Below are positions 10,274-28,170 of a stretch of 64,000 bases of DNA, one piece after another. Both the position numbers and the translations under genes were made by a program. Source of the stretch: Patescibacteria group bacterium (lineage in GTDB: Bacteria > Patescibacteriota > Dojkabacteria > GCA-002793355); NCBI GenBank assembly GCA_016860985.1, contig BOKM01000001.1, positions 463,462 through 527,461 of the forward strand, in the 5' to 3' direction. Each line of letters begins with the position of its first letter. Position 1 is the first letter of the stretch. The notes beneath the pieces are model-generated. The model had not been told where the DNA came from and made no database searches. It saw nothing but the letters and a program-made list of their open reading frames with translations.

Positions 10274-10293
10274 ATTGGACCAATTGTTCAAAG

Positions 10294-10699
10294 TGGAGGT
10301 GAGGGGAATCGAACCCCTGTTCAGCTATTCTAAAAAAGAAGTTTCTCCCAAAACAGTCTGAGTTGTTTACGAGATTATGCCTAAAAATCAGACAAAAAAG
10401 CATAACCCGCCCACACAAATACGATTCTGGCAACTCAGCGGAACTAGCGGCCAGTCGGCATGAACTTTCTTACTCCTGGCTCTCCGCTTGTCATGCGAAG
10501 GAGGAAAAGCCAGTTACGTCGAAATTAGACGTATGAGAATTGCATTGCTGGAGAAACAGCTTTGAGGGCTGAGTTCACGAACGATGCGATTTTCTCAGAA
10601 AGGGTTTGTTTGGCACTTTATGTGCTTTGATAGTTTAACGGGATATCAGCCCGTTTGGCTACTTCTTTCAACGAACAACCGTCTAAACCGATCACCCCC
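10294..10699 (-). ncRNA. ssrA: tmRNA (SsrA), one-piece
   Basis: The minus-strand RNA begins GGGGGUGAUCGGUUUAGACGG and ends GGGGUUCGAUUCCCCUCACCUCCA. The acceptor stem GGGGGUG/CACCUCC contains a G3:U70 pair followed by discriminator A, and CCA is not encoded. A PK1-like hairpin (ACGGG/CCCGU) is present. A TGaTATAAT box (hexamer at 10716-10721) lies upstream. Confidence 0.9.
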
Positions 10700-20045: not shown

Positions 20046-20666
20046 TTATTGGACTCCGGCCTTCTTTAGCTTTGTAATCACAAAATATGTTAATGGTGTT
20101 GCCACTACTTCATATACTACTTTTACGACCCATTGAGTAAGAACCATCGTTACGATTTGTGCCGATGCTAATAGTCCTCCAAATGCGATCCCCAGAAATA
20201 AGATTGTATCTACACCTTCACCGAGCACCGTTGAGGAGATAGTTCTCAACCACAAAAACCTGCCCTTGGTCAATTCCTTGATTTTGTGCATGCTCCAAGC
20301 GTTTAAAAGAGAGCCTCCCAAATAGCCGGAAAATGAAGCAACGAGGATTCTCGGTGCTACACCTAAAATAGCATCAAAGCTGAGCTGTAAATCCCAAAAA
20401 GGAGCAGCAGGCAAGGCTTGGGCAGCAGCGATGGCAAGCACCACAATAAAGTTTGCAACAAAACCAAGTAGAATTGCGAATTTTGCTTTCTGAAATCCAA
20501 ATATCTCCGTCATTACATCTCCAATGATGTAACTTAATGGGAAAACTACTATACCAGCAGGAAGAAAAACGCCACCAAGTCCCACAATTTTTACAGCAAT
20601 TATATTGGCAGCAATCAGACAGGCAATAAATAAAGAGGTCAACCCAACAAAATAACCTGAATACAT
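20046..20666 (-). CDS. yhhQ: YhhQ/VUT-family queuosine-precursor (7-deazaguanine) transporter
   Basis: Polytopic membrane protein with 'YIIGDVMTEIFGFQKAK' and 'TVLGEGVDTILF', characteristic of DUF165/YhhQ. I chose ATG 20666; an upstream TTG at 20675 is also possible. Confidence 0.8.
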   Translation of the reverse strand: MYSGYFVGLTSLFIACLIAANIIAVKIVGLGGVFLPAGIVVFPLSYIIGDVMTEIFGFQKAKFAILLGFVANFIVVLAIAAAQALPAAPFWDLQLSFDAILGVAPRILVASFSGYLGGSLLNAWSMHKIKELTKGRFLWLRTISSTVLGEGVDTILFLGIAFGGLLASAQIVTMVLTQWVVKVVYEVVATPLTYFVITKLKKAGVQ

Positions 20667-20762
20667 AATTTGCAATCAAATTTATCTTTCTACCGATGAT
20701 ACATTAAGTTAGGCCCCCCCTCAATAGCTTGACTATGGGACCGCACTTCTTTAAAATAACGC

Positions 20763-21545
20763 ATGCGCCTTGCGATTATTGCACCAAATGCATATCTGCA
20801 GGATTTTTCAGCTTTTCATAACAACTCATACCATCTTGTTCTTGCACATCGATTCAACTCCGAGCCCGAATACCGTAGTTTTTACATTGAGCAAAGAAAG
20901 AAGACTCACAGTTTTATAATTCTTGATAACGGAGCTTGCGAACTCGGAGAGTCGATTAACAATGGCACACTACTAGAAACTGCCAGTGTCCTTCGTCCTG
21001 ACGTACTTGTTCTTCCCGACGTCTTGCATCAAAGTCAAGCAACAATTGCCAGAACAGAGAAATTCATTGAGTCCTATAAACACCAGAACAAAATAAAGTG
21101 CAAATTGATGGCAGTTGTACAGGGCAAAACAAGAAAGGAGTGGCTCTCAACATTATCTTCCTTTACCTCTAATCCATATATCGATATGATTGGGATTTCG
21201 AGTACAAACGCCGTATACCCGAAGACAAAAAACTACTATACCAGAATCAAAACACTTAGGTATTTGCATCAAAGACAACTTATAGGGAAGAAAAAAATTC
21301 ATATGCTCGGGTTAGATGACTCTGGACACTTCGAATTACGTCATTTCTCAAAATATTCCTTCATCGAAGGAGCAGATTCTAGCGCTCCAGTAGTTCATGG
21401 AGCAAAAGGGATAAAAATTTACAAGAACAAGCGTTACGAAAAGATTCGAACGTATCTACCAAGCGATGCAATCCTCACGAAGGAGCAGGTATTAGCAGTA
21501 AAAGCTAATCTGCAAGTATTTTTTGACATGGCTTCACATGAATAG
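20763..21545 (+). CDS. Minimal tRNA-guanine-transglycosylase (TGT/DpdA) superfamily-like protein
   Basis: 260 aa. Its ordered motifs 'ILDNGACE', 'AVVQGKT', 'MIGISS', 'HMLGLDD' and 'GADSSAPV' parallel the TGT motifs DSGGFQ, GIVQGG, GYAIGG, LMGVGKPDD and FDCVLPT. No C-terminal zinc subdomain is present. Confidence 0.6.
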   Translation: MRLAIIAPNAYLQDFSAFHNNSYHLVLAHRFNSEPEYRSFYIEQRKKTHSFIILDNGACELGESINNGTLLETASVLRPDVLVLPDVLHQSQATIARTEKFIESYKHQNKIKCKLMAVVQGKTRKEWLSTLSSFTSNPYIDMIGISSTNAVYPKTKNYYTRIKTLRYLHQRQLIGKKKIHMLGLDDSGHFELRHFSKYSFIEGADSSAPVVHGAKGIKIYKNKRYEKIRTYLPSDAILTKEQVLAVKANLQVFFDMASHE

Positions 21546-23292
21546 AAAAATATTTGTATCGGGCGAAGGTGCTCGAGGAGCAGGAAAAACCTCTACGTTA
21601 AATGTTCTACTGCAAGAATCTACGACTCCCACTGCTGTTAACAGGGTAGCCCCAAACATACCTACAGAGCACCTTCTTCTGATTGACACTCATAAAGCGA
21701 CAAGCCCGTTTCACAAGAGAGCGCTCGAAATACATAAACAGTGGGAAGAAGCCGTCAAAACCCCAGGTGAAGGTGCAGAGCGATTATCATGGAAAAAGTT
21801 TGAGCTCGGAATACTACAGCTACGGTATGAATCCGACAGCTATCACGACGCAACTAGCAAAGCGGAGCAAATTTTTCTCGATAGAGATATTGATACAGCT
21901 GTCGTATACTCTGCAGCAGAGATTATTTTATCCAATCCTCACAAATACGATTCGGTACGTTCGCATATTGCGCTACTACACAATCTATGGCAGAAAGTAT
22001 ATTCAGTATGCCAGACAAACGACTGGGACGTGAGCACTTTTCCACACCTTGATACCGAAGATGATGTCTTATCATTAGTTGATTTTTTAAAACAACAACC
22101 CTTAAGGGATATACCCACTAATACCTTTTACTTCTTTACAAAAGATAAGACTGAATCACTAAAAAGGAGCCACACTTTACGTATAGACACTGCACTCGAA
22201 TACAATCTCACCGTAGTACAGCAAGCAACACAAGATATTATCCAACCATTGTACCTCTATTCCTTTCTCATCCGAAAACAATTATTCCCTGAGGCGCAAG
22301 TTCATTATCTCTCTTCAGATGCGCACAACATCAAAGAGCTCGCGAATTTGGTAAAACTACATGTTAATACGACGACGCTTGAGGTTCCAGGCGCAGACCA
22401 TATCCCCGTTAAGCTACGAATACCTTTTAACAAAGACCACTCCCTACCCTCATCCATTGAGACGCTTAGCCAAGTAATATTCGAAAGCACTGTTGGATCA
22501 ACCTTCCCAAGCAAACGAGAAGTACACATTAATGGAGAATCAAATTGTGTTTACAACAATAAGGCACTGTACGAATACGCATCATTACTAGGACTTGGCC
22601 ACATTGAATTCGTCCAAATTCAACGAGAGACATTCTCTGAAACTTGTCCTGTCCACTGGGCGTGTATTGAGTGGCTTACTCCCCAAAGAGATACTGCACG
22701 AATAATTGATCTGACACCTTTTAGAATTAAGCCCTACATTTCCCAACCTTGTAAAGTTACACACAATGGGGATACATACCAACTGACCTCGCTCACACAA
22801 CAGCCTATTGAATTTACTCAAGTAAAGAAAGAAACGTCATTAATTCCAGAAAGAGCCATGGAATTCGCCTATAACGTTGAATATACTTTCCAGGAAGAAT
22901 CGTTACAAGCATTAACACGTGAGGGATATGAATTGTTAGGCCAATCAAACAACGAATCGCAGAATATATTTTTAACTATTAGGTTAGGAAGATTGTTGCA
23001 GAAACAGGAACGCATCCAAGAGGCAGTCGAATTGCTTGAGCGAGCAGTGACCACTTTCCCGCAAAATCTTATACTTGCCAGGGAAGTTGCAAAGTATGTC
23101 ATTGATGGGTACATTAAATTCGTACCACCGTATTTTTATACTTACCTCAGTAACGCAAACCAGATTCTTGAACGAACTACCCAAACAATGCGAGAACATG
23201 ATATTGATGAAACTGAAATCAATGCGTATTATGAGTATAGGAAATTTATTCCACATGCACTTAAGTTAATCACCGAAGAACATGAAAGTTGA
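21538..23292 (+). CDS. Multidomain protein: TMPK/dNK-like P-loop, transglutaminase-like Cys-His-Asp core, TPR-like tail
   Basis: 'IFVSGEGARGAGKTST' and 'LDRDIDTAVVYS' resemble thymidylate kinase motifs. 'NCVYNN..LLGLG..HWACIEWL..IIDLT' resembles a transglutaminase-like core. The C-terminus is helical-repeat-like. ATG 21538 overlaps the upstream TAG by 8 nt. Confidence 0.55.
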   Translation: MNRKIFVSGEGARGAGKTSTLNVLLQESTTPTAVNRVAPNIPTEHLLLIDTHKATSPFHKRALEIHKQWEEAVKTPGEGAERLSWKKFELGILQLRYESDSYHDATSKAEQIFLDRDIDTAVVYSAAEIILSNPHKYDSVRSHIALLHNLWQKVYSVCQTNDWDVSTFPHLDTEDDVLSLVDFLKQQPLRDIPTNTFYFFTKDKTESLKRSHTLRIDTALEYNLTVVQQATQDIIQPLYLYSFLIRKQLFPEAQVHYLSSDAHNIKELANLVKLHVNTTTLEVPGADHIPVKLRIPFNKDHSLPSSIETLSQVIFESTVGSTFPSKREVHINGESNCVYNNKALYEYASLLGLGHIEFVQIQRETFSETCPVHWACIEWLTPQRDTARIIDLTPFRIKPYISQPCKVTHNGDTYQLTSLTQQPIEFTQVKKETSLIPERAMEFAYNVEYTFQEESLQALTREGYELLGQSNNESQNIFLTIRLGRLLQKQERIQEAVELLERAVTTFPQNLILAREVAKYVIDGYIKFVPPYFYTYLSNANQILERTTQTMREHDIDETEINAYYEYRKFIPHALKLITEEHES

Positions 23293-23794
23293 TCAAGCAA
23301 AACTTGGAGTAGGTACAATCTGTTACCTACACTCAAACGACTCTTACTTACTAGGCGAAAAAAAGTACGGTGGCGCACAAGGTAAAGTTAATGGGTTTGG
23401 TGGCAAGATCGAAACGACAGACCAATCAATCTATGATGCAGTTAAGAGGGAATTTCGTGAAGAAACATCAATCCAACTCAACGCACCCAAGTATTGTGGC
23501 ATTATCGAAATTTTTAAGAACGAGACGAGAAAAGCAATTTTTTATCTGTTTAAAGCAGATGACTTTATCGGCCAACCTCAAGAATCTGAGGAGATGAAAG
23601 TGTACTGGGTGAAAAATACTGAGGTCCCTTTCGAAAAAATGTGGGCATCAGATGCATTATGGCTTCCACTCTTTCTTAAAAATGACAATATACGTGTAAA
23701 ACTTTATTTTCAGGAAGGCAATGACAAAGCAGATCGAATGGAAGTAACCTTTAATGCGACTCTAGATGAAACATATCACGAAAACTTTATCTAA
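23282..23794 (+). CDS. Nudix hydrolase, MTH1/NUDT1-like
   Basis: Nudix box 'GFGGKIETTDQSIYDAVKREFREETSI'. 'NGFGGK', 'ESEEMKVYW', 'PFEKMWASDALWLPLFL' and the rest of the length align with human MTH1. It overlaps the upstream gene by 11 nt. Confidence 0.8.
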   Translation: MKVDQAKLGVGTICYLHSNDSYLLGEKKYGGAQGKVNGFGGKIETTDQSIYDAVKREFREETSIQLNAPKYCGIIEIFKNETRKAIFYLFKADDFIGQPQESEEMKVYWVKNTEVPFEKMWASDALWLPLFLKNDNIRVKLYFQEGNDKADRMEVTFNATLDETYHENFI

Positions 23795-24668
23795 GGTTCC
23801 ATCCTATTTGATAGAAACTATTGAGAAGGAATCTATTCCCTACCTCGAGCAAGTTCGTGTAAAGGAATATTCTAAACGTCTTCCACCACTTGAAGGGCAA
23901 AGAGTTGCAGTAATCCCTTGGAGTGGTGGGTTAGACTCAACAACCAGTCTTATCATGGCGATAGAAGCAGGCATCTCAATCAGGACCATATTTCTGAATT
24001 ACGGACAACCTTACATAAAGAAAGAATTGCTCGCAACCAATAAGTTAGAAAAACTGATACGCGCAAAATATCCGGAAGCAGATTGGACCGAGCATTACAT
24101 AGTCGATGTGAGCTTCATAGACCAGCTTGTGAAATCGAAATTCAACGGAGAATGGGGACATATTTTCCCAATGCGTAACTTTCTCATCCTTGAAGAATCA
24201 GCCGCGATAGCACAACCAAATAGATACACAGAAGTTTGGTTTAGCAGTGTGCAAGGAGAAATGCCTTATTCAGGAGGAGACAAGAGTGTGGTATTTCTCA
24301 CCTATATGAAAGAAATTTTTGGAAAACGGAATATTAATTTAACCACGCCGCTCGTCGGCCTCACAAAGGCAGATATGGTTCAATGGGCTATTGCCCAACT
24401 AGATAGGTTCCGTATTATTCGACATACGATATCCTGCTTCAACGGAGAAGGAGATTCCCACTGTGGTGAATGTCAAGCTTGTTTCAATCGTGCAGTAGCA
24501 TTTTTCGCTGCAAATCAACTCCCACTTAGCGGAGTCCCTTACCACAAAAACGCATTGCAAAATTTTGGAGAAAATTATATTCGTAAACTTGCTAAAGAAA
24601 GTTATTACTCCCCAACAAGAAGAAGCCAGTTACAGCAGTTCATAAACTTTATAAGCCAACAAACATGA
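23766..24668 (+). CDS. QueC-like PP-loop ATPase (7-cyano-7-deazaguanine synthase family)
   Basis: 'VAVIPWSGGLDSTTS' PP-loop, 'NYGQ', 'TTPLVGLTKADM' and the zinc motif 'SCFNG...HCGECQACFNR' parallel E. coli QueC. It carries about 45 extra N-terminal residues. It overlaps the upstream gene by 29 nt. Confidence 0.8.
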   Translation: MKHITKTLSKVPSYLIETIEKESIPYLEQVRVKEYSKRLPPLEGQRVAVIPWSGGLDSTTSLIMAIEAGISIRTIFLNYGQPYIKKELLATNKLEKLIRAKYPEADWTEHYIVDVSFIDQLVKSKFNGEWGHIFPMRNFLILEESAAIAQPNRYTEVWFSSVQGEMPYSGGDKSVVFLTYMKEIFGKRNINLTTPLVGLTKADMVQWAIAQLDRFRIIRHTISCFNGEGDSHCGECQACFNRAVAFFAANQLPLSGVPYHKNALQNFGENYIRKLAKESYYSPTRRSQLQQFINFISQQT

Positions 24669-25534
24669 TTAGCTTTGTTATACCCTCTTATCAGCGAGCA
24701 GACGGTGCAATCTTTATGATACTTAATTTGTTGCACCAAACAGTTTTCACAAAATATCCAACAGAACTAATACTGTCTATTGATGAAACTGATACCCAAA
24801 AAGAATTGTATGCAAACTACATCATTCAAGCAAAAAAAATTGCGCAAGAAATCGTACCTGCATGTAACATATCACTCCTGGTTAATCAGACAAAAGGCTT
24901 AGTCGCAGCAAAGAATAACGCTGTGCGAGCTTCTAAATACGAGTTCATCATGATGCTCGATGATGATCTTGCTGCAGTAGATAATTACGTTGAAGCCTTG
25001 TTAGCCGACATGAAGGCTGCCCCTTCAGTAGGTGCTATTTCAGGATTTATAGTTTCATACCTTTCTGCTATATCTCACACTCAACCCTCCGATTTCATTG
25101 AAGAGGTACCTAAGGAATCGCATCTACAGACACTAAAACTGGACTCCAACAATGGTGCTTGGAGAACATTTTTCGGCAAGAAAGAGCAGGTCATGGATTG
25201 GAGTAGAATCAATAAGAATATTCCTTCTACGGTTCGCTATACCATGGACTATTTTGTCAATTCGTATCTCTTTAGAAGAAGCGCATACAACAAAATAGGT
25301 GGATACTCAAATGATTTAAATTCTAAGACATCTGCCCACGAGGAGGTCGATTTCACTTATAGAATGAGAAAAGCTGGCTACCAACTTCTTTTTAATCCAT
25401 TTGTCCAGATGTGGCATATTACCGTCGGCCACGGAGGTATCTACAAAGGAGCAGATTACAATGAGAGTAAAGAAATCTTAGAAAAAGAGTATAAAGAAAG
25501 TATACCTCTATTTGTTCAGTCGATTTCCAGGTAG
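24665..25534 (+). CDS. Glycosyltransferase family 2
   Basis: 'SFVIPSYQRADG' and 'IMMLDDDL' (DxD) match a GT2 fold. The start overlaps the upstream stop as ATGA. Confidence 0.75.
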   Translation: MISFVIPSYQRADGAIFMILNLLHQTVFTKYPTELILSIDETDTQKELYANYIIQAKKIAQEIVPACNISLLVNQTKGLVAAKNNAVRASKYEFIMMLDDDLAAVDNYVEALLADMKAAPSVGAISGFIVSYLSAISHTQPSDFIEEVPKESHLQTLKLDSNNGAWRTFFGKKEQVMDWSRINKNIPSTVRYTMDYFVNSYLFRRSAYNKIGGYSNDLNSKTSAHEEVDFTYRMRKAGYQLLFNPFVQMWHITVGHGGIYKGADYNESKEILEKEYKESIPLFVQSISR

Positions 25535-25577: not shown

Positions 25578-26372
25578 ATGAAATCCCCGTATGTTCAGGG
25601 TTTGAAACAGGGGTTCGCCGAACTTTCAGTCTACTCTCTCGATTTCCTGTTTGGGTTATTCCAAGCAGTTGCGCTTGTCGGCTTTGAAATACTCCTGTGG
25701 ACTTTTGTCCTCCCTGCTGATAACCAAACTGCCCTATTTGAACGCACCTCTTATTTTTTGCTAGCCAATGGCATTGCCTTGGTAATCGGAGGTGCCCGAT
25801 ATCGCTTTGCCAGAGATTTATCACTCGTCATCAAAGAGGGAACGTTGTCGCACTACCTTCTTAAACCGATTAATCCTGTACTTTACATCTATTCAGAACA
25901 TGTTGGAGGAAAAGGACCAGATTTTATGATCGGATTAATTTTTATAATCATGGGAACTTTGTGGATACCGACCTTTACGCTCGTTAAGCTACCATTGTTG
26001 TTGATAACGCTGGCTGCAGCTCTCATAAATACAATCTCACTAAACGTTATCGCAGGGGCTGTAGCCTTTTGGACAACCGAGGCAAACGGTATTAAGAATG
26101 CCTTTGCGCAAACAACGCGATTATTTAACGGACAGCAAGTTCCCATCAATCTTTTCATGGAAATGATCAGTCCTTTTTGGGCGCAATTCTTGTATATTCT
26201 CCCCTTCGCAAGTGTTGCATATACGCCAACGCACATAGTTATTGCCAAAACATTCGACGCAATAGATTTTAGATTTATCATCGCTTCGATTATCTGGGCG
26301 TTCATTCTCCCGTTACTCGCAACACTAATTTGGAATAGAGGACTCAAACGATATGAGGGGACTGGTCTCTAA
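25578..26372 (+). CDS. ABC-2 type transporter permease
   Basis: 264 aa with about 6 TM segments, in an ABC-2 (DUF990-like) permease pair followed by an ATPase. TGtTAAACT box at 25560-25568. Confidence 0.65.
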   Translation: MKSPYVQGLKQGFAELSVYSLDFLFGLFQAVALVGFEILLWTFVLPADNQTALFERTSYFLLANGIALVIGGARYRFARDLSLVIKEGTLSHYLLKPINPVLYIYSEHVGGKGPDFMIGLIFIIMGTLWIPTFTLVKLPLLLITLAAALINTISLNVIAGAVAFWTTEANGIKNAFAQTTRLFNGQQVPINLFMEMISPFWAQFLYILPFASVAYTPTHIVIAKTFDAIDFRFIIASIIWAFILPLLATLIWNRGLKRYEGTGL

Positions 26373-27171
26373 CCTACGATTCTACTTTCGAGTACTTGCA
26401 AAAAAGATTTTGTTTGCCTGGCAGATAGAAACGGCTTACGCAGGGAACACGATAGGTGAGCTTTTTTCAACCATTTTTTACAACATTACCTTTATTATTT
26501 TTATCGATATTGTACTGCGAAAATATAAGCTGCTCGCTGGCTACTCTTTCAACGATATGCTGGTACTTGTTTTTGTGACACAGATTGTATTCTATACAGG
26601 ACTAACTATTACTTACGATAGCATGTCAAAATTCGTACAATCTGTAAGAGATGGTATTTTTGATACGTACCTTCTCAAACCGATGTCTGTTTTCTTTCAA
26701 GTGATGACCTTAAGCATCAGGCCGTTTTCTGGGCTGTTCTTTTCTGTTCCACCATTGCTAATTTATGTAGTGCTCATCATTAAAAATCAAGCATTTCATC
26801 CCGAACCTTTTGGGCTAACGGTTGGCTTACTTGGAATGTTGGTTGGGATTCTCTACCTTCATTTTTATCGATTTACGTTTGCGATGTTCGTGTTTAAAAC
26901 AAAACAGGTAAAAAACCTACTCAAAACACTTGACCTACTTGGGGATGCTGGATCTTTTCCCTACGAGGCTTATGTTGAACCGTTTAGAACAATTGTCTTT
27001 TTTATTGCGCCATTTCTTGCTGCGGCTGCCATTCCTGCAACCTACTTCTTAAACAAAACGACTTCTCTTTGGCCATTTGTTATTCAGATTGGACTCATGC
27101 TATTTTTTATGACTACTGCACTACTTTTATGGAGAAAAGGATTAAAAGAATATGAATCAATTTCATCTTAA
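26353..27171 (+). CDS. ABC-2 type transporter permease
   Basis: 272-aa polytopic paralogue-like partner. It overlaps the upstream permease gene by 20 nt. Confidence 0.65.
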   Translation: MRGLVSNLRFYFRVLAKKILFAWQIETAYAGNTIGELFSTIFYNITFIIFIDIVLRKYKLLAGYSFNDMLVLVFVTQIVFYTGLTITYDSMSKFVQSVRDGIFDTYLLKPMSVFFQVMTLSIRPFSGLFFSVPPLLIYVVLIIKNQAFHPEPFGLTVGLLGMLVGILYLHFYRFTFAMFVFKTKQVKNLLKTLDLLGDAGSFPYEAYVEPFRTIVFFIAPFLAAAAIPATYFLNKTTSLWPFVIQIGLMLFFMTTALLLWRKGLKEYESISS

Positions 27172-27186
27172 TTATTCACCCCTATT

Positions 27187-28170
27187 ATGAAACCAGTTAT
27201 CACTACACAAAACCTCAAAAAGGATTTTCTTGTTCCTGCACGACAGTCATTTTGGCAAAGACTGTTTACTCCAAAATACGAAGAAGTCACGGCTGTCGAC
27301 AACATTTCTTTTCACATTATGGAAGGCGAATCTGTTGCACTTCTTGGACCGAATGGCGCGGGCAAAACAACAACCATGAAAATGATGACCGGCATACTTT
27401 ATCCAACAGCCGGAAGTTGCAATGTGCTTGGATACAACCCTAATAAACGCAACCCTGCGATGCTTAAAAACATTGGCTTTGTAATGGGCAATAAAAGCAC
27501 GCTTTCTATGGACCTTTCCCCTATGCAAAACTACGAGCTTAACAGAGTTATTTACGATATTGATGCCACAAGATTTTATAACACGATAGACGAACTTGGG
27601 GAACTTCTTGAGGTAAAAGATCATTTATATAAACAAACACGAAAACTCTCGCTTGGACAAAGAATGAAAGCGGAAATGATAAACTCGATACTACACAGAC
27701 CGAAGATTCTCTTTCTAGACGAACCGACCATTGGACTAGACATCTCCTCTCAGAACAATATTCGCACATTTCTTAAAAAAGTTAACAAAGAGCTAGGAAC
27801 GACGATTATCCTTACGAGCCACAATATGGAAGATATTTCACAAGTTTCTGAAAGAGTACTTATAATCAATCAAGGCAAACTCGTTTACGACAACTCTCTC
27901 GAAATGCTGAAGCGGACTTTTTCAACAAAAAAATACATCAAGGTTATTGTTACAACAAAAGGAAACTCCCGCTCCTTTGAGAAAAAGTTTAAGCCATTTG
28001 GTGACATTGTCAGCTCTGGTAAAGATTTCGTGACGCTCGAAATTGATAAAAACAGACAGGCACCCATTATTGCAGCAATACTCAACATGGAGCACGTTCA
28101 TGATATCGATATTGAGGGGGTACCACTCACAAAAATCATAGAATCGATTTTCAAGAAAAAACTTGATTAG
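27187..28170 (+). CDS. ABC transporter ATP-binding protein
   Basis: Walker A 'GPNGAGKTTT', signature 'LSLGQRMK' and Walker B 'ILFLDEPTIGLD'. Confidence 0.92.
   Translation: MKPVITTQNLKKDFLVPARQSFWQRLFTPKYEEVTAVDNISFHIMEGESVALLGPNGAGKTTTMKMMTGILYPTAGSCNVLGYNPNKRNPAMLKNIGFVMGNKSTLSMDLSPMQNYELNRVIYDIDATRFYNTIDELGELLEVKDHLYKQTRKLSLGQRMKAEMINSILHRPKILFLDEPTIGLDISSQNNIRTFLKKVNKELGTTIILTSHNMEDISQVSERVLIINQGKLVYDNSLEMLKRTFSTKKYIKVIVTTKGNSRSFEKKFKPFGDIVSSGKDFVTLEIDKNRQAPIIAAILNMEHVHDIDIEGVPLTKIIESIFKKKLD

Follow-up and report, generated by a model that had tools for sequence, protein, structure and literature searches.

A minimal DpdA3-type transglycosylase in a conserved chromosomal operon of Patescibacteria and its possible action on free nucleotides

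Within the 64-kb stretch of Patescibacteria DNA analysed here (the window), an open reading frame codes for a 260-aa protein that almost certainly is a transglycosylase of the DpdA3 family and very probably uses a 7-deazaguanine base. This subfamily has hitherto been described in phages only, and its chromosomal, operon-borne setting in Patescibacteria is new. The gene stands first in a conserved order of five, followed by the genes of a Tmk-like kinase fusion (P589), an MTH1-type NUDIX hydrolase, a remodelled QueC and a family 2 glycosyltransferase (GT2). Concerning the reaction, we tentatively suggest that the base is exchanged on (d)GMP and that the product feeds a modified dNTP.

The 260-aa protein and its active site

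The reading frame at 20763-21545 (plus strand) extends exactly from ATG to stop. The gene and the codons of its putative catalytic residues are:

20763-21545, plus strand: minimal transglycosylase with TGT fold, DpdA3 type, 260 aa, consisting of the (beta/alpha)8 barrel without zinc subdomain
20925-20927, plus strand: codon of D55 (ILD55NGACE), putative equivalent of the general acid/base aspartate, pairing with the LDSGAF aspartate of DpdA1
21018-21020, plus strand: codon of D86 (VLPD86VL), putative equivalent of the base-recognizing aspartate, pairing with MIFDEC of E. coli Tgt and LDGIGDP of DpdA1
21375-21377, plus strand: codon of D205 (GAD205SSAPV), putative equivalent of the covalent nucleophile, pairing with MFD264CVMPT of E. 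coli Tgt and CDSSSW of DpdA1

Six motifs named in an initial annotation of this DNA are all present in the order given there, at coordinates which were correct to within ~4 nt: ILDNGACE (residues 53-60, nt 20919-20942), VLPDVL (residues 83-88), AVVQGKT (residues 117-123), MIGISS (residues 142-147), HMLGLDD (residues 180-186, nt 21300-21320), and GADSSAPV (residues 203-210, nt 21369-21392). In alignments of 157 and of 118 relatives D55, D86, D205, and N249 are 100% conserved, N56, G183, P85, and H180 at least 96%, G144 91%, and Q120 85%. As the six motifs coincide with the columns of strongest conservation in the family and are paired with those of DpdA1 by hhalign (see below), they are not a product of chance.

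In DpdA the acid/base aspartate is D95, equivalent to D89 of E. coli Tgt, the base-recognizing aspartate is D130 (D143 in Tgt), and the nucleophile is D256 (D264 in Tgt), which lies within the motif FDCV(L/M)PTR (PMC10164549). The nucleophile had initially been placed in LMGVGKPDD and its counterpart HMLGLDD; its equivalent is instead D205 in GADSSAPV. In the alignments with E. coli Tgt, D143 pairs with D86 and D264 with D205. Judged from its sequence, the 260-aa protein is thus a member of the TGT/DpdA fold with intact active-site aspartates D55, D86, and D205.

The protein has two cysteines, and a CxCxxC motif was found in 0/157 relatives; therefore the zinc site is absent, as had been proposed. 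The C-terminal end follows the nucleophile motif after 50 aa and not after about 40. The protein is the barrel alone, lacking the zinc site as well as the nucleic-acid-binding insertions. It is basic (pI 9.5), and 4/5 proteins of the CPR clade have a pI of 8.8-9.5. As an indicator of the substrate the pI was rejected, since it does not discriminate between substrates.

Family placement

The AF2 model of the protein has a pLDDT of 95.4. With Foldseek it is recognized as a (beta/alpha)8 barrel, the nearest structural relatives of which are TGT/DpdA enzymes, with DpdA the closest. When the family profile was compared with the profile of phage DpdA1, hhalign gave a probability of 94% and an E value of 1.2e-7 over 166 columns, and every motif was paired as expected from the parallel to the motif spacing of TGT that had been pointed out before. 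This result against the DpdA1 family profile is the only significant one with hhalign; against the single sequence of E. coli Tgt the E value was 0.53 with an 18-sequence profile (not significant) and 0.003 with a 157-sequence profile.

The initial annotation had suggested checking the assignment with PF01702 and a DpdA HMM. Both profiles miss the protein: PF01702 gave no match at E <= 0.1, with 1/118 relatives reaching E 0.11, and PF23859 did not match it either, with 3/118 relatives at E >= 0.022. Searches of Pfam, NCBIfam, and PADLOC with the protein yielded no match, and phmmer and hmmsearch against the PDB sequences were empty with 1, 18, and 118 sequences. Sub-threshold Pfam matches (DUF6610, DpdA or TGT) occur in only 13/118 relatives. 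PF01702 and PF23859 are blind to almost the whole family; the link to TGT/DpdA rests on the profile-profile and fold comparisons.

The membership in the DpdA3 family was seen more directly. In tblastn searches the 260-aa protein reached the phages vB_CjeM_WX1 (5e-12), CP220 (2e-10), and immuto, where the match is annotated as DNA guanine transglycosylase (6e-9), at 79-90% coverage, and among the PHROGs it matched phrog_19058 at E 1.5e-16. The DpdA3 proteins of CP220 and immuto are 44% identical to each other. A tblastn search from the immuto protein did not reach phiST, so phiST is placed in the same family by the statement of the authors who described it (PMC10516641). Under the Bacillus phage matches, the labels 'NadR' and 'polynucleotide kinase' are erroneous: the gene so labelled is the DpdA3-like gene. 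Together, the Foldseek, hhalign, tblastn, and PHROGs results bear out the earlier view that the protein belongs to the TGT superfamily and is nearer to DpdA than to tRNA TGT.

Compared with phage DpdA3 the homology spans the whole protein, at 27-31% identity and with E values of 5e-12 to 6e-9. The size of about 260 aa, the single domain, the invariant residues, and the lack of the zinc motif are common to both, and both occur together with genes for the synthesis or supply of 7-deazaguanine. The two differ in their location (a Patescibacteria chromosome here, a virus there), in the residue at the aromatic 'gate', which is Cys (GACE) in the CPR clade and Tyr (GAYE) in most members, and in the absence of an adjoining DNA polymerase gene from the operon. 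With bacterial DpdA (PDB 7UI4) the protein shares three equivalent active-site aspartates and presumably a double-displacement base exchange. However, it has 260 aa instead of 413 (224 residues aligned), Ins1, Ins2, Ins3, Ins8, and the CxCx2Cx22H zinc site conserved in DpdA are missing, PF23859 is unmatched, and there are no DpdB or DpdC partners. With Tgt (PF01702) it has in common the barrel, the motif order DSGGFQ / LDEC / IVQGG / AIGG / LMGVG / FDCV, and the three aspartates, whereas an N-terminal lid formed by a beta-sheet, the zinc subdomain, and the tRNA-binding surface are absent, the identity is about 10%, and PF01702 is unmatched.

Organization of the operon

The further features of the locus are:

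20046-20675, minus strand: divergent Vut_1/YhhQ-type queuosine-precursor transporter (PF02592 E 1.9e-49; TIGR00697 118.9 bits, cutoff 50.95)
20729-20757, plus strand: sigma-70-like promoter match TTGACT-17-TAAAAT, a consensus match only, ending 6 nt before the DpdA3-like ATG
21538-23292, plus strand: P589, a 584-aa fusion of an N-terminal Tmk-like (d)NMP kinase, an orphan middle domain, and C-terminal TPR-like helices
23282-23794, plus strand: MTH1/NUDT1-type NUDIX hydrolase, 170 aa (PF00293 E 2e-9)
23766-24668, plus strand: remodelled QueC-family ATP-pyrophosphatase, 300 aa (PF06508 E 6.8e-24; TIGR00364 69 bits, cutoff 150)
24665-25534, plus strand: GT-A (family 2) glycosyltransferase, 289 aa, closing the operon (PF00535 E 1.5e-10)

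The transporter, presumed to import the 7-deazaguanine base, adjoins the DpdA3-like gene in the window and in the loci L001, L002, L078, L005, and L006. In L079, L080, and L084 QueD-QueE genes are found directly upstream of the operon, and in L079 and L084 they replace the transporter. In the window an 87-bp divergent intergenic region separates the two genes. Promoter-like sites are no more frequent there than in shuffled sequence, and an Rfam search of 20500-20900 returned nothing at E <= 1, so that the region has no riboswitch match.

The first 8 nt of P589 are also the last 8 nt of the DpdA3-like gene; the mechanical reading frame begins at a TTG at 21523, and the database protein (P0167) has 584 aa. 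The kinase domain contains a P-loop, DRxxD, and PDxTFY, and in a profile search of the PDB nearly all matches were thymidylate kinases, with 3hjn as the best (E 8.9e-4). In the middle domain Cys337, His373, and Asp391 are invariant, and Pfam and PDB searches with this domain were empty. The spacing of these residues may resemble that in NAT or transglutaminase-like enzymes, but we claim no such relationship. Only 4 homologues of P589 were found among 5.8e9 clusters. With only 4 sequences in the alignment the predicted structure is poor (pLDDT 60), and with this model Foldseek returned TPR noise only. Homology to the kinases encoded beside phage DpdA3 was considered and rejected, as only the P-loop is in common.

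The NUDIX hydrolase matches zebrafish and human MTH1 in the PDB with E values of 1e-23 to 1e-19, compared with only ~1e-6 for bacterial MutT. The substrates of its MTH1-type relatives are modified purine (d)NTPs in free form, which are hydrolysed to (d)NMPs.

Canonical QueC is defined by SGGxDS, YxQxHxxE, VPxRN, YPDC, K165, and C(x)8CxxCxxC with Y189 (PMC13082051). The QueC-like protein of the operon does not carry this full signature. Relative to E. coli QueC it has kept SGGLDS, YGQ, R99/N100, D133, K165, and the four zinc cysteines, but H39 is changed to Y, YPDC to SG-GDK, and Y189 to F, and about 21 aa are deleted. In addition, it has conserved N- and C-terminal extensions and a weak match to QatC (2e-6). 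The GT2 protein is 47-62% identical across all operon copies and also exceeds the cutoff of PF20691 (TAGT; 29.8 bits against 27.5).

The Tmk-like kinase and the MTH1-type NUDIX hydrolase are present in every copy of the operon, and L084 has a histidine-phosphatase gene. The surroundings are cellular (UvrA, UvrB, UvrC, a tRNA synthetase, tmRNA), and an identical 260-aa protein is encoded on a Patescibacteria contig of 1.05 Mb. A constant association with DNA-repair genes was rejected, as these are found in the window, L001, and L079 and are missing from L003 and L004. Downstream of the operon the window contains an ABC-2 transporter, which is not kept in L001 or other copies. A metagenome scan with the CPR-clade profile returned distant relatives only and 0 further copies of the operon.

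DpdA3 in phages and uncultivated viruses

The described members of DpdA3 are CGPG_00065 of Cellulophaga phage phiST, gp056 of Campylobacter phage CP220, and gp206 of Flavobacterium phage vB_FspM_immuto (Cui et al. 2023, PMC10516641). They are linked to the complete replacement of G in the phage DNA, and the authors proposed a post-replicative insertion into DNA; however, when DpdA3 was expressed alone in E. coli the DNA was not modified (PMC10516641). In CP220-infected cells the ADG nucleoside was detected. Whether G is replaced before or after replication is unsettled (PMC6884629 versus PMC10516641).

In CP220 an HD phosphohydrolase gene lies immediately upstream of DpdA3 and an AAA_28 kinase gene immediately downstream; in immuto the gene of a PRA-PH/MazG enzyme lies upstream and that of an AAA_28 kinase downstream, each at a distance of two genes, and in phiST a dUTPase/MazG is found three genes away. 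By analogy, these kinases and phosphohydrolases of 100%-replacement phages may be regarded as non-homologous equivalents of the kinase and the NUDIX hydrolase of the operon. In viral loci FolE, QueD, QueE, and QueC genes adjoin the relatives of the 260-aa protein. Kinases or NTP-pyrophosphatases are a minority in uncultivated viral loci, with about 5 of 149 nearby ORFs (41 loci). The commonest viral neighbour is a UDG-PolA polymerase (41/55 loci), which fits an action at DNA equally well. Relatives of P589, the NUDIX hydrolase, the remodelled QueC, and GT2 were sought in the DpdA3 phages and none was found.

Discussion

The set of proteins encoded with the DpdA3-like enzyme might give a hint at the substrate, and we lean, tentatively, towards free nucleotides and not a polymer as the substrate of the exchange. 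According to this scheme, a 7-deazaguanine base, in the simplest case 7-carboxy-7-deazaguanine (CDG), would be imported or made, and the NUDIX hydrolase would turn (d)GTP into (d)GMP. The DpdA3-like enzyme would then swap the guanine of free (d)GMP for the deazaguanine via a covalent D205-(deoxy)ribosyl intermediate. The QueC-like enzyme would amidate the 7-carboxyl group in an ATP-dependent reaction, GT2 would glycosylate the product, and the Tmk-like domain would re-phosphorylate the modified nucleotide. The end user would most likely be a DNA polymerase, so that DNA would come to contain a hypermodified 7-deazaguanine. Which base is used (CDG or preQ0) and in which order the steps follow each other are guesses.

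For this reading speak the presence of the MTH1-type NUDIX hydrolase and the Tmk-like kinase throughout the operon copies, both with relatives that act on free nucleotides, the 8-nt overlap of the kinase gene with the DpdA3-like gene, and the phosphohydrolase and kinase genes that flank DpdA3 in 100%-replacement phages. The failure of DpdA3 alone in E. coli and the ADG nucleoside of CP220 infection point in the same direction. In addition, the protein lacks the zinc-pinned Ins8, the element with which DpdA contacts DNA (PMC10164549). The caution of the initial annotation that the substrate may be neither DNA nor tRNA agrees with this operon context. On the other side, the authors who defined DpdA3 proposed a post-replicative reaction, kinase and pyrophosphatase neighbours are scarce and UDG-PolA is frequent in viral loci, the pI of 9.5 is basic, and GT2 exceeds the threshold of the TAGT enzymes, which are DNA-base glycosyltransferases. 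All characterized enzymes of the TGT superfamily use macromolecules (tRNA, DNA, or protein in case of Cap10), and we know of none that acts on mononucleotides.

A similar logic is found in the phage dZ (2-aminoadenine) pathway, which consists of MazZ/DatZ, PurZ, and kinases: an NTP pyrophosphatase converts dGTP to dGMP, the base is remade on the monophosphate by a dedicated enzyme, and the kinases bring it back to the dNTP pool, from which the replacement becomes complete. The analogy is one of logic only. The enzymes are wholly different, and we infer a TGT-fold swap here as opposed to the PurA-like rebuilding there.

The main rival is an exchange of guanine in DNA itself after replication, which we consider possible but doubtful. 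P589 would then be a DpdB-like partner that handles or activates DNA, the QueC-like protein and GT2 would elaborate the base in DNA, and the NUDIX hydrolase would only sanitize the pool. That the closest structural relative is DpdA, which inserts preQ0 into DNA, is in favour of this mechanism, and it is the one proposed in the DpdA3 literature (PMC10516641). In the bacterial Dpd system the DpdC-type conversion of preQ0 to ADG also takes place on DNA (PMC10164549). The TAGT match of GT2, the frequent UDG-PolA neighbours, and the basic proteins of the CPR clade are counted on the same side. Nevertheless, the zinc site and Ins8 with the DNA contacts of DpdA are missing, a ParB-like DpdB was not found in the operon, and the Tmk-like kinase and the MTH1-type NUDIX hydrolase, both strictly conserved, are left without a role. 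The unmodified DNA after DpdA3 expression in E. coli likewise argues against it.

An improbable reading is that the operon makes a free 7-deazapurine metabolite, glycosylated and amidated like cadeguomycin or huimycin, or a signal or cofactor, with the base attached by exchange on GMP and nucleic acids left unmodified. The pathways of huimycin and roseomycin do tailor free 7-deazapurines with glycosyltransferases and QueC-like amide synthetases, and the kinase, the NUDIX hydrolase, and the histidine-phosphatase of L084 would suit a tailoring of nucleotides. The ABC-2 transporter following the operon in the window could be added, but such genes are missing from L001 and the other copies. Moreover, the characterized contexts of the DpdA3 family are all phage DNA modification, and the known deazapurine clusters use a phosphoribosyltransferase instead of a TGT-like enzyme. 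Patescibacteria genomes are very small, which makes a secondary metabolism less likely.

A modification of tRNA, in which the minimal enzyme would replace the canonical TGT and insert a salvaged queuosine precursor from which GT2 makes a glycosylated queuosine-like base, is very improbable. The YhhQ-type precursor transporter adjoins, no canonical tgt was found within the 64-kb window, and eukaryotic tRNA contains glycosyl-queuosines. However, the enzyme has neither the zinc subdomain nor the remaining parts with which TGT binds tRNA, the family is tied to phage DNA and stands beside polymerase genes, and the kinase and the NUDIX hydrolase have no role in tRNA insertion. Least probable of all is the conjugation of deazaguanine to a protein in defence, as in type IV CBASS (Cap9/Cap10) or QatABCD: the pairing of TGT-like and QueC-like proteins, the 7-deazaguanine, the literature on protein deazaguanylation, and the weak QatC match recall these systems, but CD-NTase, effector, QatA, QatB, and QatD are absent, PADLOC detects no system, the QueC-like protein is of another subfamily, Cap10 is outscored in the structural comparison by DpdA, the TGTs, and a number of generic barrels, and the flanking genes are housekeeping genes and not defence islands.

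DpdA3 is the least understood 7-deazaguanine transglycosylase, and its activity was never reconstituted. In the compact cellular system of the operon a nucleotide kinase always accompanies the DpdA3-type enzyme, as does a purine-NTP pyrophosphatase. These constant partners offer a concrete explanation, open to test, for the failure of DpdA3 alone in E. coli, and the operon supplies a defined set of five proteins for a reconstitution. It also contains three further uncharacterized components, namely the orphan Cys-His-Asp domain, the remodelled QueC subfamily, and GT2.

The exchange on (d)GMP can be extended to a bolder proposal, which we regard as unlikely at present: DpdA3 enzymes in general would not be DNA insertases but would convert dGMP and a 7-deazaguanine base to a modified dNMP and guanine, and some Patescibacteria would have domesticated a version that marks their own chromosome with a new, amidated and glycosylated 7-deazaguanine. 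If so, DpdA3 would stand between an NTP pyrophosphatase and a kinase and make a modified dNTP pool, which would account for the fact that in CP220, phiST, and immuto all G is replaced. Should the product of the operon reach DNA, the candidate phyla radiation would have its first DNA modification by 7-deazaguanine, probably one that is new and glycosylated. This would be relevant to the protection of DNA in these episymbionts and to the ease with which it can be sequenced.

Superfamily membership and active site

An ATG-initiated open reading frame lies at exactly 20763–21545 (+) and codes for 260 amino acids. The six motifs listed in the initial annotation were all found in its translation, in the same order:

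Residues 53–60: ILDNGACE
Residues 83–88: VLPDVL
Residues 117–123: AVVQGKT
Residues 142–147: MIGISS
Residues 180–186: HMLGLDD
Residues 203–210: GADSSAPV

After the last motif 50 residues follow, not about 40 as first estimated, and the zinc subdomain is indeed absent: the protein has two cysteines and lacks the CxCxxC...H motif, which was found in 0 of the 157 relatives examined.

Searches of Pfam (PF01702 included), NCBIfam and PADLOC returned no match, and runs of phmmer and hmmsearch over the complete set of PDB sequences were empty, also with profiles of 18 or 118 sequences. Three independent lines, structure, profile comparison and conservation, establish the relationship to the TGT superfamily. 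The AlphaFold2 model, built on 18 homologues (pLDDT 95.4, pTM 0.92), is a plain (beta/alpha)8 barrel. All of its top 18 Foldseek matches are TGT or DpdA; in the structural comparison unrelated TIM barrels begin at 14.6. The profile of the 157-sequence family aligns with the phage 9g-type DpdA1 profile over 166 columns (probability 94%, E 1.2e-7).

Paired motifs, family profile first and DpdA1 profile second
ILD55NGA, FLDSGAF
D86, LDGIGDP
IG144IS, TLGG
H180xLG, VHGFG
D205SSAPV, CDSSSW

Aligned with the E. coli Tgt sequence alone, the profile scores less well (E 0.003) but gives concordant pairs, MIFD143EC with D86, GIIQG with Q120 and MFD264CV with D205. Across the 157 relatives D55, D86, D205 and N249 are invariant, and conservation reaches 96% or more at N56, P85, R161, H180 and G183. 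The DpdA counterparts of D55, D86 and D205, namely D95 as acid/base, D130 for base recognition and D256 as nucleophile, do not vary among DpdA and TGTs, and the D95A and D256A variants are inactive (PMC10164549). The nucleophile, formerly assigned to the LMGVGKPDD motif, resides in the FDCV motif, and its equivalent here is therefore D205. Thus, the protein has a predicted TGT/DpdA-type fold with an intact catalytic triad; by analogy it would work like a TGT/DpdA base-exchange enzyme. It is a member of neither PF01702, whose HMM match and Zn site are both missing, nor the bacterial DpdA family PF23859, for which HMM match, Zn site, insertions and DpdB partner are all missing. It consists of the barrel alone, and the Zn-pinned, DNA-contacting insertion of DpdA is missing.

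A cellular member of the DpdA3 subfamily

An exhaustive profile search gave 5,093 representative clusters at E ≤ 0.001, and nearly all of the best 150 have a length of 245–280 aa. Along its whole length the protein aligns with phrog_19058 (E 1.5e-16), and tblastn matched it to phages CP220 (2e-10) and immuto (6e-9), the latter protein being annotated as DpdA. The same phage proteins were named DpdA3 by Cui et al. (2023), who detected them by HHpred as distant TGT/DpdA homologues in phiST, CP220-type phages and immuto, where they accompany 100% replacement of G by dDG, dADG or fdPreQ1 (PMC10516641). Expression of DpdA3 in E. coli failed and its activity was never demonstrated, and the ADG nucleoside was reported from infected cells (PMC10516641). 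Homology, size and pathway linkage show that the 260-aa protein belongs to DpdA3. Together with structure, profile and conservation, this homology supports the initial proposal that the zinc-less protein is closer to DpdA than to tRNA TGT.

The viral setting of DpdA3 is not shared. The window contains UvrA, UvrB, UvrC, a tRNA synthetase and a tmRNA, its GC content is even at ~41%, so that nothing marks the region as foreign, and an identical protein (MFZ6022075.1, "hypothetical protein") is encoded in a Patescibacteria MAG, on a contig of 1.05 Mb. The tmRNA (10291–10699, −) is a full-length match to Rfam RF00023 (92 bits, E 1.6e-34); ARAGORN reported neither tRNA nor tmRNA genes in the whole window.

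Among viral relatives, FolE, QueD, QueE and QueC adjoin the DpdA3-like genes (47 viral contigs). Within 4 kb in 14 viral loci, many of them without QueC, lies a GARS/PurD-like ATP-grasp protein (~435 aa; PF01071/PF02843; for example L015:10385–11689 (−) and L085:9687–11012 (−)), a possible alternative activator of the 7-carboxyl in 7-carboxy-7-deazaguanine (CDG). GenBank wrongly labels the DpdA3-like genes of BSP7/BSTP-type Bacillus phages (for example BSTP12, L082:4932–5720) as "NadR", "integrase/recombinase" or "polynucleotide kinase"; they have preQ0-pathway genes on one side and DNA polymerase I on the other.

The five-gene operon

The DpdA3-like gene is the first of an operon of overlapping or abutting genes:

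20763–21545 (+), DpdA3-like protein
21538–23292 (+), kinase-fusion protein P589; middle domain at 22405–22857
23282–23794 (+), MTH1/NUDT1-type NUDIX protein
followed by a QueC-family protein and a GT-A glycosyltransferase

Eight complete and two truncated copies were found, some of them in Ca. Daviesbacteria and Saccharimonadia MAGs; the genes on either side are unrelated housekeeping genes. In the window and three further loci (L001, L002, L078) a divergently transcribed gene codes for a TIGR00697-type queuosine-precursor transporter; in three others (L079, L080, L084) QueD and QueE take its position. Through this alternation the operon is firmly linked with a 7-deazaguanine base. Since both versions retain the QueC-like gene, CDG would be their simplest common intermediate.

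Downstream (25578–28170, +) lie three ORFs, two of which code for ABC-2-type membrane proteins. They are absent from this place in the syntenic L001 and the other copies and are therefore probably not part of the system. Further phosphate-handling enzymes adjoin the operon in two copies, a His_Phos_1 histidine phosphatase on the 3′ side (L084:6178–6789) and a metallophosphoesterase on the 5′ side (L087:72–746).

P589 (584 aa) has only four homologues among 5.8 billion clusters, and no phage relatives were found. At the N-terminus it has a domain resembling thymidylate kinases: the PDB profile matches are almost exclusively Tmk proteins, and the P-loop, DRxxD and PDxTFY motifs agree. The middle domain (residues ~296–432) is an orphan that matched no family among Pfam and PDB sequences. 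Nine orthologues share its signature G..FP...N-C-x3-N ... P-V-H-W ... R-x-x-D-x-T-P-F, with Cys337, His373 and Asp391 invariant; it may be a putative glutaminase-like domain that provides the QueC-like enzyme with ammonia, or a putative acyltransferase. Towards its C-terminus P589 is TPR-like, and its predicted structure is unreliable. A mechanical ORF call starts P589 at TTG 21523, the database protein at ATG 21538; the latter gives an 8-nt overlap with the end of the DpdA3-like gene, which suggests translational coupling.

The NUDIX protein resembles vertebrate MTH1/NUDT1 (E ~1e-23) far more closely than bacterial MutT (~1e-6), which is unusual for a bacterial gene. The QueC-family protein retains the ATP loop, R99/N100, D133, K165 and the Zn cysteines; H39 and the YPDC motif are gone, the Tyr of the latter being essential in E. 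coli QueC (PMC13082051), and the protein shows a ~21-residue deletion and conserved terminal extensions.

Possible substrates

Free nucleotides are the substrates of the families to which two of the conserved partners belong: MTH1-type enzymes hydrolyse purine (d)NTPs to (d)NMPs, and Tmk-type kinases phosphorylate (d)NMPs to (d)NDPs. The same functional trio recurs with non-homologous proteins in the complete-replacement phages:

CP220: DpdA3 directly flanked by an HD phosphohydrolase-kinase fusion (upstream) and an AAA_28 kinase (downstream)
immuto: each at a distance of two genes, a PRA-PH/MazG enzyme upstream and an AAA_28 kinase downstream
phiST: dUTPase/MazG three genes away

Given these partners, the overlap with the kinase gene, the phage trio, the bare barrel, the failure in E. 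coli and the ADG nucleoside, we tentatively favour exchange on free nucleotides. The NUDIX enzyme would hydrolyse (d)GTP to (d)GMP, on which the DpdA3-like enzyme would swap the base; the QueC-like enzyme would amidate the product and GT2 add a sugar, and the Tmk-like kinase would re-phosphorylate the modified nucleotide for use by a polymerase.

The main rival, only somewhat less likely, is direct guanine exchange on DNA, as proposed by the DpdA3 authors. Every characterised superfamily member acts on a macromolecule, GT2 scores above the Pfam threshold for TAGT enzymes, which are DNA-base glycosyltransferases, and only a minority of the neighbours in uncultivated viral loci are kinases or pyrophosphatases. 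There the commonest neighbour is a UDG-superfamily/family-A DNA polymerase fusion (41 of 55 loci, often abutting; for example L019:3674–6076, among viral loci L007–L053). This polymerase may be specialised for modified dNTPs or cooperate with DpdA3 on DNA. A free nucleoside metabolite as product appears unlikely, tRNA modification is very improbable, and Cap9/Cap10-like protein deazaguanylation is more improbable still.

A different cellular arrangement occurs on a Pirellulales MAG contig (L006:470–4452), with a Vut_1 transporter, a DpdA3-like protein, a 146-aa ORF, an ORF resembling HhH-GPD glycosylases, a SAM methyltransferase and a genuine thymidylate kinase (PF02223, E 5.8e-34). It is another pairing of DpdA3-like protein, transporter and Tmk.

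No paper found mentions DpdA together with Patescibacteria, none that discusses DpdA3 mentions kinase or Nudix partners, and the operon's subgroup is absent from a 2026 survey of the QueC family. Thus, the protein family is already known and named; what we regard as new is the five-gene system in a cellular genome and what it implies for the mechanism.
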